This document shows positions 33,682-37,138 of a stretch of DNA of 42,469 bases, piece by piece. The notes under the pieces are model-generated. The model saw only the letters and a list, made by a program, of their open reading frames with translations, made no database searches and was not told the DNA's origin. The stretch's first letter is position 1, and every line of letters starts with the position of its first letter. Made by a program: the position numbers and the translations under genes. The stretch lies in IMG/VR virus record IMGVR_UViG_2541047705_000011; one strand, written 5' to 3'. This DNA is from a virus. Taxonomy: Duplodnaviria > Heunggongvirae > Uroviricota > Caudoviricetes.

Positions 33682-33742
33682 CTTTACCCTCGCTTATCCA
33701 CATAACTTATTGATTACATTGATAACTAAAAAGATCGTCGAT

Positions 33743-34204: not shown

Positions 34205-35005
34205 TTACTTGATAAATCCTGCCGCCTTTCCCCGCCTGTATTCCTCCATCAGCCACTGCGCCGGTGTTATTCCCCCCAGGGTGGCGGCGTTAGGCATGCA
34301 CCCGAAACTTCGCCCTGGTGGATGGTAAACGTCTCTCCCTGTGTCCGGAGGCGTACTCATGGGTTCTGGCTTTGCCTGTATGCTGATCACCGGATCGGGT
34401 ATCTGCTGTCCGGAAGCCACCTTTTTCGCCCAATCATCGAGCAGCCTGCGCGCGTGTTTCTCAACCTCAATCTCGCTAAGCTGGCGCTGATACATTGCAC
34501 GGCGGGTATCACATACGACCCAGTACATAACCGGATGCCGCCACGGGAATCTTTCGGGACCACCAGGATATAAACTTTTTTCCTTGCTGTACCGGTGAAA
34601 CTCCGTCATCACATCGTCAATGGTGACGCCAAGAACCATCTTGCTGTCTTTGCACCACTTGATGAATTGCCCTGGCGACGGCCAGAACGGAGAATCACTG
34701 GCGCGGGCGTGGCGCATACCAGCAGAAACCTGTTCACGGGTTCGGATCCCACCTTCGGCAAACGCAGCAATCCACTGCTGTTTTGCAGCAACTTCCTGCT
34801 CTGGCGTCTTCAGGTTGGTTACCACTGCCGCCGGAAACAGTTGTTTCAACTGTTTGAAAAGGGCATCAACAAGCCTCTCTGCTGACATGTTCACTACGTT
34901 GTCATTGTTGGTGTACTGATGCTCATAACCTGACATGCGAGAAAGGGCTTCTCCGTCACGGTTTTGTATTGCGGTAAAAACGTTGTTCACAAGAAATCCT
35001 CCCAT
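34205..35005 (-). CDS. Replication protein P-like (helicase loader)
   Basis: Lambda-P-like core SAGMRHARASDSPFWPSPGQF; overlaps O-like stop. Confidence 0.8.
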   Translation of the reverse strand: MGGFLVNNVFTAIQNRDGEALSRMSGYEHQYTNNDNVVNMSAERLVDALFKQLKQLFPAAVVTNLKTPEQEVAAKQQWIAAFAEGGIRTREQVSAGMRHARASDSPFWPSPGQFIKWCKDSKMVLGVTIDDVMTEFHRYSKEKSLYPGGPERFPWRHPVMYWVVCDTRRAMYQRQLSEIEVEKHARRLLDDWAKKVASGQQIPDPVISIQAKPEPMSTPPDTGRDVYHPPGRSFGCMPNAATLGGITPAQWLMEEYRRGKAAGFIK

Positions 35006-35802
35006 GCTTCAGGGCTGTTCCAGTGCGGAACGTTGTTATCAGGTAATGTTGATTGCTTCTGTCTGCTAATCTGCAGCCGCCTTGCCAGCTTCTGCTCCCA
35101 CTGTGCCTGATGGTATGCCTTACCCTCAGCCATCCAGTAAATTCTGAACTCTGCAAGTTCCTGTGCCGTTGGCAGACTGTCCAGGTAGATTCCCTGCAAT
35201 GAGCTTTTCCGAAGAAAGTCATCTGATGGCTGCCATTGTTCATGCATGACAAATTTGCCTAATTGCCCTGGCCCACCAGGAGGAACAAAGTTATTCATCA
35301 CGGCGTTGTTTGCGCCGGGGTCATGAGGCACAGAATCCCCGGTTTTTGTCCTGCTCTCCCTCTCTTGGTTAAATGACTGGTTATATGACTGGTTCTGGAT
35401 CCCGTTTTTGGGATCATTCAACATCCCGTTTTTGGGATCATTCAACATCCCGTTTTTGGGTATATTCCCGTTTTCGGTAACATTACCGTTTTCGGGTTCA
35501 TTACCCCCTTCCCGGTTGCCTTTAATGTTCCCGTTTTTGGTTATATTAAGAGAGAAAACCCGCACTCTTTTCGTCGCTCCCTTTCTCTCTCCGGTATCTG
35601 AAATAAGCCCCATTTTCATGAGCGATATAAGCCCGGCCTGCACGGTTTTTTTATTCAGGCAAGTGTCTTTAACGAGGCGTTCTATGCTGGGGTAGCAGAG
35701 GTTATATTCATCGGCTCTGTCAGCCATCGAGAGCAGTATGAGCTTTAATGACGAGCTACCTGGATCTGTCTCCCAGGCCCAATCTGTTGCATGTCTGCTC
35801 AT
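34987..35802 (-). CDS. Replication initiator O-like protein with internal ori iterons
   Basis: RBS GGAG; HTH-like N-terminus; repetitive KNGxxNDPKNG middle encoded by DNA iterons. Confidence 0.75.
   Translation of the reverse strand: MSRHATDWAWETDPGSSSLKLILLSMADRADEYNLCYPSIERLVKDTCLNKKTVQAGLISLMKMGLISDTGERKGATKRVRVFSLNITKNGNIKGNREGGNEPENGNVTENGNIPKNGMLNDPKNGMLNDPKNGIQNQSYNQSFNQERESRTKTGDSVPHDPGANNAVMNNFVPPGGPGQLGKFVMHEQWQPSDDFLRKSSLQGIYLDSLPTAQELAEFRIYWMAEGKAYHQAQWEQKLARRLQISRQKQSTLPDNNVPHWNSPEAWEDFL
35401..35541. repeat. Iteron array (candidate origin) inside the O-like gene
   Basis: About six copies of CCCGTTTT(T/C)GG at 18-24 bp spacing, two as perfect 24-bp tandem ATCCCGTTTTTGGGATCATTCAAC. 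Confidence 0.65.
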
Positions 35803-35817
35803 GATTAATCTCCGCTA

Positions 35818-36018
35818 TCAGCTTGAATGTTGTGGGGAGGAATTAATCATGATCTGCTTAATCTCTGCCCTGATGCGACGGTTTGATTCCATGGTGCACT
35901 CAACACAGTGTCCGTTGTAAACCCAGCGTTCACTGTCATGTCCGTGCTTACATGGTTTTCCGGTGTAGTAGCGTTTAAGTCCGCGCTTTGCGGCATCAAT
36001 ACGTGTAATGATTTCCAT
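35818..36018 (-). CDS. Small zinc-finger protein in the CII position (66 aa)
   Basis: CKHGH..x10..CVEC motif; start ATG 36018 or 36054, both with weak RBS. Confidence 0.45.
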   Translation of the reverse strand: MEIITRIDAAKRGLKRYYTGKPCKHGHDSERWVYNGHCVECTMESNRRIRAEIKQIMINSSPQHSS

Positions 36019-36097
36019 GGTAAGCCCTGTTATTAGTATTGGGATTACGGTCATTTTGTGCTGACACAAAAAAAAGATCAACCAGATTTGGTTTTTT

Positions 36098-36114
36098 ATT
36101 ACCTTTGAGGTGCG
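36098..36114. promoter_or_regulatory. Degenerate operator-like site ATTACC-TTTGA-GGTGCG
   Basis: Perfect left arm, 3/6 right arm; just downstream of the Cro-side terminator. Confidence 0.3.
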
Positions 36115-36128
36115 AATAGATATGAAAA

Positions 36129-36146
36129 GACCGCCGGATGGCGGTC
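36129..36146 (-). terminator. Rho-independent terminator after Cro-like gene
   Basis: GACCGCC-ATCC-GGCGGTC then TTTTCAT on minus strand. Confidence 0.65.
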
Positions 36147-36168
36147 TACAGAGGGTTGTGGCTGGATA

Positions 36169-36399
36169 TCATGAGTAGAAGAAGTATGCCAGTTCTGCTT
36201 TTGAGCGCAACCATTGTCTTGATTTACAGGCTTTAAAAAGCCCATTCATCAATACCTTACCTGGCATTTTGCGCTTACCTGTTAAGTGAGTCTGGATATA
36301 GTGACTCGTCGTTCCGGCTTCCTGTGCGAAGGCTTCACGCTCATCCGGAGTGAGTGCAAGCCAGTGCTTTTTGAAATCGAAATGTCCGTTATCGCTCAT
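36169..36399 (-). CDS. Cro-like HTH regulator
   Basis: 76 aa; HTH FAQEAGTTSHYIQTHLTG; divergent from CI-like gene, points toward O/P. Confidence 0.65.
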   Translation of the reverse strand: MSDNGHFDFKKHWLALTPDEREAFAQEAGTTSHYIQTHLTGKRKMPGKVLMNGLFKACKSRQWLRSKAELAYFFYS

Positions 36400-36434
36400 A
36401 GCTATTGCCTGATATTTATTTCAGATAATAAATA

Positions 36435-36499
36435 TTCACCCATAAGGTAACAAAAATCAAGGATAGTTACCTATGAGGTGCATTTACCTGTTGGGTAAT
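36435..36499. promoter_or_regulatory. Immunity-region operator cluster (three sites)
   Basis: 36435-36451 TTCACC-CATAA-GGTAAC; 36466-36482 GTTACC-TATGA-GGTGCA; 36483-36499 TTTACC-TGTTG-GGTAAT; candidate Cro-side promoter -35 TTGTTA / -10 TATTAT on minus strand. Confidence 0.6.
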
Positions 36500-36553
36500 A
36501 TTGCTTTAAATTGAATCATCTACTGATTCATATATGAGGCGATTTTCCAGAAA

Positions 36554-37138
36554 ATGAAAAGTATCCAGGACGTCCGCAGGCAAAATCTCAACGACTTGAT
36601 CGACCGTGAATTCAATGGTGTTCAGACGCGGATGGCAGAAAAACTTGGAACTCAGGCAAATCTGGTAAACCGCTGGGCTCTTGGCAAGAAGGTTATCGGC
36701 GACCAGGTTGCGCGAAAAATTGAAGCTGCCGCCAATAAACCCCGTAACTGGCTTGATATCGATCGCTCGCTTTCTCAGGAAGGTTTTCAGCCTGTCGGCC
36801 CAAGCGACATTGGTCAGCTGGCGGCTCACAACCTGGAACGCTGGATGAGCGAAAGCCGCGACCTTTCAACACAGGGAAAACTTCACCGCGCATCCGGCGT
36901 CGCCCAGGTGACAATCAGCCGCCTGTTAAACAATGAGGTCAGCGTTTCCATTTCCACCCTGGAGAATGTTGCATCCGCATTCGGGCGTCACGGATATGAA
37001 CTACTGATTCACCCGCACGACCCTGCGACTATCAACTATGACCGCTCGCGCTACGCATTGTTACCCGAAACCGAGAAAGCAAAGATCGAAAGTTACATTG
37101 AATTTGTCATCAACCAGAACGAAAAAAACAAACAATAA
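36554..37138 (+). CDS. CI-like repressor with two HTH domains and no recognisable S24 peptidase domain
   Basis: 194 aa; HTH segments TRMAEKLGTQANLVNRW and LHRASGVAQVTISRLLN; no Ser-Lys autocleavage module seen; weak SD. Confidence 0.65.
   Translation: MKSIQDVRRQNLNDLIDREFNGVQTRMAEKLGTQANLVNRWALGKKVIGDQVARKIEAAANKPRNWLDIDRSLSQEGFQPVGPSDIGQLAAHNLERWMSESRDLSTQGKLHRASGVAQVTISRLLNNEVSVSISTLENVASAFGRHGYELLIHPHDPATINYDRSRYALLPETEKAKIESYIEFVINQNEKNKQ

Follow-up and report, generated by a model that had tools for sequence, protein, structure and literature searches.

The initiator gene and its array of direct repeats

The stretch of DNA analysed here, which we call the window, comprises 42,469 nucleotides (nt) of a virus of the class Caudoviricetes (IMG/VR record IMGVR_UViG_2541047705_000011) and represents a phiV10/epsilon15-like (Uetakevirus) prophage of Escherichia coli, the region of interest being 97-99% identical in DNA sequence to the Escherichia phages phiV10, EC.W1-9, phiv142-3 and PAS61, each of them a Uetakevirus. 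Our subject is its replication initiator gene, located on the minus strand at 34987-35802 and encoding a protein of 271 amino acids (aa) homologous to phiV10 gp43 (as indicated by the list of open reading frames (ORFs), Pfam, PHROG and DNA identity), together with an array of six direct copies of a short repeat, or iteron, that lies inside this gene and on the same strand at 35399-35551. A preliminary description of the window had proposed that this array marks the likely origin of replication, in the manner of the origin that phage lambda carries in its gene O.

The array was recovered by repeat search, pattern search and Tandem Repeats Finder. Its members occupy, in plus-strand coordinates, positions 35399-35422, 35423-35446, 35447-35470, 35465-35488, 35483-35506 and 35528-35551, so that successive copies start 24, 24, 18, 18 and 45 nt apart. 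The 12-nt core reads on the plus strand CCCGTTTTTGGG in three of the copies (35401-35412, 35425-35436 and 35449-35460), CCCGTTTTCGGT at 35467-35478, ACCGTTTTCGGG at 35485-35496 and CCCGTTTTTGGT at 35530-35541, giving in gene sense the consensus (A/C)C(C/G)(A/G)AAAACGG(G/T), in which one core begins with A instead of C. The last three copies in gene sense have the sequence GATCCCAAAAACGGGAT(C/G), with dyad arms of 5+5 bases, ATCCC and GGGAT, around AAAAAC. The array as a whole spans codons 88-134, right after the conserved N-terminal block of residues 1-86, and encodes the segment ...TKNGN...EPENGNVTENGNIPKNGMLNDPKNGMLNDPKNGIQ..., all six copies being read in one frame as (P/T)(K/E)NG. The preliminary description of the repeats was thus largely upheld: about six copies of CCCGTTTT(T/C)GG had been reported, and five copies agree with this pattern throughout, the sixth departing from it at one base; the perfect 24-bp tandem is found in the first two 24-mers (35399-35422 and 35423-35446), which are identical; and the repeats do lie within a coding sequence (ORF 34987-35802, minus strand) and generate a repetitive KNG segment in its product. 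The reported periodicity of 18-24 bp applies to five of the copies but not to the sixth, which stands 45 nt away.

When the pattern CCCAAAAACGGG was searched with up to two mismatches, seven matches were found in the 42,469 bp, six of them within a single stretch of 141 bp (35401-35541) and all of these on the minus strand. A stricter degenerate pattern gave four matches where 0.11 were expected, a number that none of 100 shuffles reached. Because six of the seven near-matches cluster in 141 bp and the shuffled sequences fall short, chance can be excluded as the source of the array. The three highest-scoring arrays that Tandem Repeats Finder reported in the window were the 24-nt array at 35399-35460 (score 124), the 18-nt array at 35450-35505 (score 70) and a 12-nt array at 35366-35394 (score 51).

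Some further properties of the array were noted on the way. GATC (Dam) sites, which occur on average once per ~276 nt in the window, number three in a segment of 42 nt (35398, 35412 and 35436), inside or beside the two iterons with which the array ends there; this cluster may be linked to control by Dam and SeqA, GATCCC being kept in several enterobacterial relatives and not in the arrays of Vibrio and Acinetobacter. Between 35409 and 35452, palindromic neighbours make inverted repeats capable of forming hairpins (TGGGAT-N8-ATCCCG, followed by a run of T), which the terminator scan flags on the plus strand, antisense to the gene; these flags are probably an artefact of the repeat structure. 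The two copies spaced by 18 nt, ACCGAAAACGGG and CCCGAAAACGGT (35467-35496), each differ by one base from the papillomavirus E2 origin-binding site ACCGAAAACGGT, a likeness that almost certainly reflects convergence of form, that is, a dyad around an A-tract. A literature search with the motif strings returned no phage matches, only papillomavirus E2 sites and unrelated primers.

Reading frames of the repeat among distant relatives

Since all copies in the window share one frame, the window cannot settle whether the repeat is an element of the DNA or of the peptide, and relatives were therefore collected. They were gathered with a query free of the repeats, an alignment of the N-terminal 86 residues only, which was scanned against genome contigs and yielded 80 loci with 41-87% identity in the N-terminal domain from Enterobacterales, Vibrio, Pseudoalteromonas, Marinomonas, Acinetobacter, Desulfovibrionaceae, Sphingomonadales and others. 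Each locus was scored by its most recurrent 10-mer (allowing one mismatch) between nucleotides 240 and 620 of the gene, which was feasible for 77 loci, and 673 tiles of equal size taken from the same loci served as controls. At least four copies of a 10-mer were present in 77% of the 77 scorable loci compared with 0.4% of the control tiles, and at least three copies in 88% compared with 12%. The core of these arrays has the form CC(C/G), an A-rich segment and (C/G)GG, and is often extended and dyad-symmetric, as in GTCCC...GGGAC, TACCG AAAA CGGTA or TACCGAAAACGGTA.

The reading frames of the copies could be compared in the 69 loci with at least three of them. Two or three frames are used by the copies in 58 of these loci, all three in 36, and the typical spacings are 17 and 22 nt. 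In Vibrio salinus, for example, TCCCAAAAACGG is read both as SPKNG and as PSQKR, and the copy TTCCAAAAACGG, with one mismatch, as IPKTE; in Providencia stuartii CCCAAAAACGG is read as TQKR and as PKNG; and in one locus of Desulfovibrionaceae (L167) CCCCCGAA passes through all three frames. Copies lying in several frames in 58 of 69 loci point to selection on the DNA word and not on the peptide. By this argument the repeat is a DNA element in the family and, through homology, in the window, and a repeat kept as a peptide linker is excluded.

The number of copies was examined in a separate sample of 80 near-identical IMG/VR prophages, whose N-terminal domains are 99-100% identical and which served for the census of copy number only. 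These carry between four and nine iterons, the arrays inspected gaining or losing 18 or 24 nt at a time, and one to three copies of the 12-mer mentioned above. Most of the genes are full-length and in frame, and their products (from near-identical E. coli) fall in protein clusters of 279, 287, 291 and 311 aa. The variable number of iterons indicates that the protein tolerates a variable length of the linker that they encode. The 27-nt spacer that separates copies 1 and 2 holds most of the point variation.

Domain structure of the initiator

The initiator matches phrog_1032, annotated as replication initiation protein, with E 1e-108, and consists of two domains joined by a linker of low complexity that holds the repeats and that, judging from its composition and its tolerance of insertions and deletions, is presumably disordered. 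The N-terminal DNA-binding domain (aa 1-86; 35545-35802, minus strand) contains a winged helix of the Pfam family HTH_36 at aa 18-67 (E 2e-10) and would be the part that reads the iterons. It is 47-59% identical to the N-terminal domains of the initiators of Edwardsiella phage GF-2, Vibrio H20, Acinetobacter AP22 and PPompW, and the end of the HTH_36 domain, DTGERKG...V.V..L, is conserved in the family alignments, with D69, T70, G71, R73 and G75 present at 90% or more. The C-terminal domain (aa 181-265; 35008-35262, minus strand) resembles E. coli DnaT and is a putative module for binding single-stranded DNA (ssDNA) or for contacting the helicase loader. In a phmmer search of the PDB it matched the chains 9zbt_D, 6aep_A, 4ou6_A and 2ru8_A of E. 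coli DnaT/primosomal protein 1 (E 7e-21 to 2e-19), and the Pfam family DnaT was found at aa 184-252 (E 1e-15). The homology is confined to about aa 180-265 of the initiator and residues 85-170 of DnaT, and because the N-terminal half is HTH_36 there is no match to full-length DnaT. Database names such as 'primosomal protein I' and 'DnaT-like ssDNA-binding domain-containing protein' are attached to this protein. In a sequence search of the PDB, neither lambda O nor the HTH_36 N-terminal domain was found to have a solved structure.

The protein had been described beforehand as O-like, a label that holds in a remote and functional sense. The N-terminal regions of lambda O and of the window initiator both match phrog_678 (E 1.7e-35 and 2.5e-12, respectively) and phrog_345 (E 5e-17 and 8e-9), in overlapping regions of the profiles, and because these two families are common to both, the label is justified, as far as the profiles reach, as transitive remote homology combined with functional analogy. 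In the direct sense it does not hold: the initiator has no match to Pfam Phage_rep_O (PF04492), Pfam giving HTH_36 and DnaT, so that it stands outside that family, and direct comparison with lambda O gave no significant result.

All 73 full-length relatives scanned belong to HTH_36, and their C-terminal parts were assigned to DnaT (7), Phg_2220_C (5) and DnaA_N (2), the rest being mostly left with no assignment. The genes downstream of the relatives' initiators are of the lambda P type in 16 cases and otherwise encode DnaB-type helicases, IstB/DnaC-like ATPases, AAA_25 proteins and others. A P-like gene follows in 7 of 7 loci with a DnaT-like C-terminal domain as against 10 of 77 with other C-termini, although several of these loci are close kin and so are not phylogenetically independent. 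The N-terminal domain and the array stay constant while the C-terminal domain (DnaT, Phg_2220_C, DnaA_N or lambda-O-type) and the partner gene vary. A modular logic in which the N-terminal domain reads the array and the C-terminal domain recruits the helicase machinery is established for lambda O, and an array that travels with the N-terminal domain is the pattern expected from such a logic. Taking the copies in several frames as the proof of it, the HTH_36 domain and the intragenic array are a cassette conserved across the family.

The flank of the array and a putative unwinding region

On the side of the array that is downstream in the gene, the last iteron is adjoined by the 12-nt tandem repeat at 35366-35394 (minus strand; period 12, 2.4 copies), which reads AACCAGTCATAT / AACCAGTCATTT in gene sense and TGGTTAAATGAC / TGGTTATATGAC on the plus strand. 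It encodes a QS(Y/F)N repeat and is present in three copies in phiV10 and in one to three among close relatives. The 40-mer that contains it (35360-35399) has a guanine plus cytosine (GC) content of 0.40 and a free energy (dG) of -49.1 kcal/mol, compared with a window mean of -54.9 and a 95th percentile of -48.2, which agrees with the earlier remark that the flanking sequence is not clearly AT-rich. The 40-mer at the other end of the array (35520-35559), which spans the isolated first copy on the side not used by lambda, is less stable, with GC 0.30 and dG -45.6. Averaged over 60 relatives, GC is lower by 9-13 points (6-8 standard errors) in the interval 20-60 nt beyond the last iteron, and nothing similar is seen ahead of the first; in lambda a drop of 20-35 points occurs on the same side, at 0 to +30 nt past the iterons. 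We hence place a candidate unwinding element at 35360-35398, its signal being weak in this phage.

A possible seventh, degenerate copy, ACAAAAACCGGGGAT in gene sense and with one extra base, was noticed on reading the sequence at 35333-35349 (minus strand), its status being uncertain. Its equivalent in the record of Escherichia phage BP9, ATCCCCGTTTT, was paired with an iteron by the repeat search. Lying beyond the 12-mer repeats, this copy might bracket the putative unwinding region.

Comparison with known in-gene origins and iteron systems

The origin of lambda maps in gene O and combines iterons, to which O binds as dimers, with a 40-bp A+T-rich region that opens (PMC5043065), the minimal unwinding unit being two iterons with the adjacent tract (as cited in PMC7466680). 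In the Stx phages 933W and P27 gene O holds six iterons whose binding was shown experimentally (PMC7466680), whereas gene 18 of P22 and gene 18 of phage L each hold iterons of their own, the origin of L having been proposed in silico from six imprecise copies of TGTCCAACGGA (PMC8022706). Iterons inside the gene are accordingly taken as the origin in lambda, the Stx phages, P22 and L (PMC5043065, PMC7466680, PMC8022706).

The window resembles lambda in several respects. In lambda the Phage_rep_O domain (aa 22-115) is directly succeeded by the four iterons, at codons 117-145 of O, and these by the AT-rich tract; the array of the window likewise begins right after the N-terminal DNA-binding domain (at codon 88 instead of codon 117), has on its gene-downstream side a stretch of lower GC, though a weak one, is followed by a gene for a P-family loader and belongs to an early operon behind a cro-like gene. 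The sites are also alike in form, since lambda has ATCCCTC AAAAC GAGGGA and ATCCCTC AAATT GGGGGAT, the window, in three of its copies, ATCCC AAAAAC GGGAT and phage GF-2 ATCCC AAAATT GGGAT. The arrangement of the lambda origin within O, which had been invoked for this locus, is therefore reproduced in the order of its parts, with an initiator gene, a P-family loader gene next to it, an array that is an element of the DNA after the N-terminal domain and, with a weak signal in the window, the lambda polarity of DNA-binding domain, iterons and lower-GC stretch. The differences lie in the N-terminal domain, which is HTH_36 and not Phage_rep_O, in the C-terminal domain, which is DnaT-like and not that of lambda O, in the six shorter sites (~16 nt as against 18-19 nt) spaced by 18 or 24 nt, and in the weak AT-rich tract.

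The Stx phages 933W and P27 share with the window the number of six iterons, which varies among close relatives, as well as the position of the best conserved or bound sites nearest to the AT-rich side, the three perfect copies of the window adjoining its lower-GC stretch; their O proteins are nevertheless close homologues of lambda O, whereas the window initiator belongs to another family, has another C-terminal domain and is predicted to bind its sites. P22 and L are similar in that distantly related lambdoid initiators have their own iterons in the gene, and TGTCCAACGGA resembles the GTCC(C)AA..GG core of the HTH_36 family, but there the initiator is paired with a DnaB-type helicase (gene 12) and not with a P-type loader.

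The 'O' protein of Edwardsiella phage GF-2 (AP014629.1, 34168-35010) is 59% identical to the window initiator in the N-terminal domain, has a P gene downstream and carries in the same position of its gene five sites of the type ATCCCAAAATTGGGAT spaced by 17, 18 or 24 nt. Its C-terminal half is instead of the lambda O type (tblastn E 1e-58 to the C-terminal part of lambda O; end DWIYGVQL) and not DnaT-like. From the affinities of its two halves, GF-2 'O' is a natural chimera between a window-type HTH_36 domain with iterons and a lambda-O-type half, with the junction in the region of the iterons and linker.

Iteron plasmids such as P1, F, RK2, R6K and pSC101 (PMC5043065, PMC4980987) likewise have arrays of replicon-specific sites beside an unwinding region and initiators with winged helices, but their iterons are intergenic, bound by monomers, helically phased and accompanied by DnaA boxes, whereas the sites of the window are intragenic, with clear dyad symmetry in three of the six, and have no DnaA box nearby. 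A search for DnaA boxes found none near the array or within 1.7 kb, the nearest being at 33694. With its intragenic position, its spacings of 18, 24 and 45 nt and no DnaA box within 1.7 kb, the array departs from the plasmid type represented by RepA, pi and TrfA. The likeness to E. coli DnaT, finally, concerns aa 181-265 of the initiator and residues 85-170 of the DnaT C-terminal domain (E ~1e-20). Host DnaT has no sequence-specific winged helix and no iterons, and works with PriA and PriB at stalled forks in replication restart.

The array as a candidate origin and its alternatives

We consider it likely that the array comprises the binding sites of the phage's own initiator and that, together with the downstream stretch 35360-35398, it forms the origin of the prophage inside the initiator gene, as the lambda origin does in O. 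Seen in this way the locus very probably is a further example of the known lambda-type arrangement of an origin in the gene, even though its initiator lies outside the lambda O family. We infer for this locus that the initiator binds and bends the DNA, that unwinding takes place at 35360-35398 and that the origin fires, as well as the part given below to the DnaT-like domain. After derepression, leftward transcription from the early promoter near 36450 would proceed through the cro-like gene and a small ORF into the initiator gene. The winged-helix domain of the initiator would bind the dyad-symmetric sites centred on A-tracts, probably as dimers, and occupation of several sites would wrap or bend the DNA into a complex similar to the O-some. 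The adjoining stretch of lower stability with its 12-mer repeats would then open, the DnaT-like domain may engage the single strands, the P-like loader encoded by the neighbouring gene, or both, and the loader would bring in the DnaB helicase of the host.

Several observations weigh against this interpretation and have to be set beside it. Clear arms of 5+5 bases are found in three of the six copies, those of the other three being of just 2-3 bp (CCG/CGG or CC/GG). All copies of the window share a single reading frame, and the argument from frames depends on the relatives. When cores and spacers were compared among the near-identical prophages, with differently structured genes removed, 5 of 72 and 11 of 69 positions, respectively, were variable, a difference that is not significant (p = 0.11). 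The flank of the array does not attain the 95th percentile of instability and the window has no AT-rich tract of lambda grade. BLASTP and hhalign comparisons of the initiator or its family profile with lambda O were not significant. The RefSeq record of phiV10 annotates terminators in the replication region and no origin. The cumulative GC-skew of the whole window reaches its minimum at 35643, ~100 nt from the array, but was rejected as evidence for an origin because near 36450 the genes change from the minus to the plus strand, and this boundary of divergent transcription, with which the minimum coincides, confounds the signal.

In a different reading of the sites, the initiator does bind them, yet their main role is regulatory (roadblock autoregulation, copy control or handcuffing, or exclusion of related phages), and both the opening of the strands and the start of replication take place elsewhere, for example in the AT-rich segments 36040-36125 or 36400-36550. 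The flank is only mildly AT-rich whereas GC falls to 0.27-0.33 in 36040-36130 and 36370-36550, and ectopic copies of the lambda origin do interfere with lambda growth (PMC4488673, PMC3349717), so that iteron arrays can act beyond initiation. Those AT-rich regions have, however, no iteron-like copies and correspond to the operator region and to a spacer after the terminator, the GC dip in the 60 relatives lies directly beside the array on the lambda side, and two iterons with the adjacent tract are sufficient as the minimal unwinding unit of lambda (as cited in PMC7466680). We therefore regard a mainly regulatory array as unlikely.

The two remaining explanations deny the sites any function as DNA. 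A flexible interdomain linker rich in N, G, P and K might have been selected as protein, as would be suggested by the six copies of the window encoding (P/T)(K/E)NG in one frame and by changes in copy number that, at 18 or 24 nt each, keep to whole codons; we hold this for very unlikely and disfavour it, since the motif specifies unrelated peptides in 58 of 69 relatives, where its copies occupy two or three frames, the core with CCC and GGG at third-codon positions is kept from Escherichia to Vibrio and Acinetobacter while the residues change (PKNG, PKIG, PENG, TQKR), and the dyad symmetry has no rationale at the level of the protein. Least probable of all we find neutral slippage, which would have multiplied the repeats in a tolerant linker with no function in either DNA or protein. 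The perfect 24-nt duplication and the four to nine copies among near-identical prophages would fit it, yet arrays with a related core occur at the same position of genes whose N-terminal domains are 41-87% identical and which come from several bacterial orders. Neutral duplications would not last so long or keep a common pattern of dyad and A-tract, and the 18-nt units, the 24-nt units and the isolated first copy have diverged from each other and still keep the core.

Beyond the origin of this prophage, one may ask whether the cassette is portable, that is, whether HTH_36 and iterons with a lambda-like pattern of half-sites (CCC / A-tract / GGG), conserved among prophages of Enterobacterales, Vibrionales, Alteromonadales, Moraxellales (Acinetobacter), Desulfovibrionaceae and Sphingomonadales, recombine at the iterons and linker with interchangeable domains for helicase recruitment, the DnaT C-terminal domain being the one adopted in the phiV10 lineage. 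We put this forward tentatively, as more doubtful than not. If it were true, the initiator of the phiV10 lineage would be a replication-restart adaptor targeted by sequence, which passes ssDNA or DnaB to a P-type loader.

The analysis provides a concrete and testable candidate origin (35.33-35.55 kb of the window) for phiV10/epsilon15-like prophages, for which our literature search found no description of an origin, the original genome papers lying possibly outside its reach. The database label 'primosomal protein I / DnaT' appears misleading for what is a predicted origin-binding initiator. A simple rule for finding origins in phage and prophage replication modules of the HTH_36 type also follows, namely a repeat array in several frames right after the winged helix, which can be used in the annotation of prophages, in the design of mini-replicons and vectors and in predicting replication incompatibility or exclusion between co-resident prophages. 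The added value is modest, consisting of the conserved cassette of HTH_36 and array, the strict pairing of DnaT-like C-terminal domain and P-type loader, and the correction of the label; the mechanistic understanding of such origins is unchanged by the result.

Gene neighbourhood

The replication region is present in 424 of 5,426 complete E. coli genomes (~8%). Directly after the initiator gene lies the gene for the helicase loader of the lambda P family (34205-35005, minus strand; PF06992 E 1.7e-56; phrog_109 'P-like helicase loader' E 7e-92; phiV10 gp44), which, going by the phiV10 annotation, could start instead at a GTG at 34990 that overlaps the stop codon of the initiator gene. On the other side, a small ORF at 35818-36018 (minus strand; phrog_1081) is homologous to phiV10 gp42; it shows a CxH...CxxC pattern and matches weakly families similar to endonuclease VII. 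The cro-like gene at 36169-36399 (minus strand; phrog_35 transcriptional repressor E 9e-13; phiV10 gp41) opens the early operon, which extends through the initiator gene. Upstream of it the promoter scan indicated a promoter-like site (36425-36453, minus strand), and downstream of it the terminator scan indicated a terminator-like hairpin (36128-36147, minus strand), which is annotated as a terminator in phiV10. A divergent repressor-like gene with two helix-turn-helix motifs (36554-37138, plus strand; Pfam HTH_3 E 1e-9; phrog_8 E 5e-27; phiV10 gp40) marks the immunity region upstream of the replication module.

A module of the phiV10 type, with repressor, initiator, P gene and five iterons, was also met near the end of the record of Escherichia phage BP9 (PP488543.1, ~133.4-137.2 kb), which measures 138 kb and is classed as a Vequintavirus; it seems to have entered the record through a chimeric assembly or as contamination by a fragment of a prophage.

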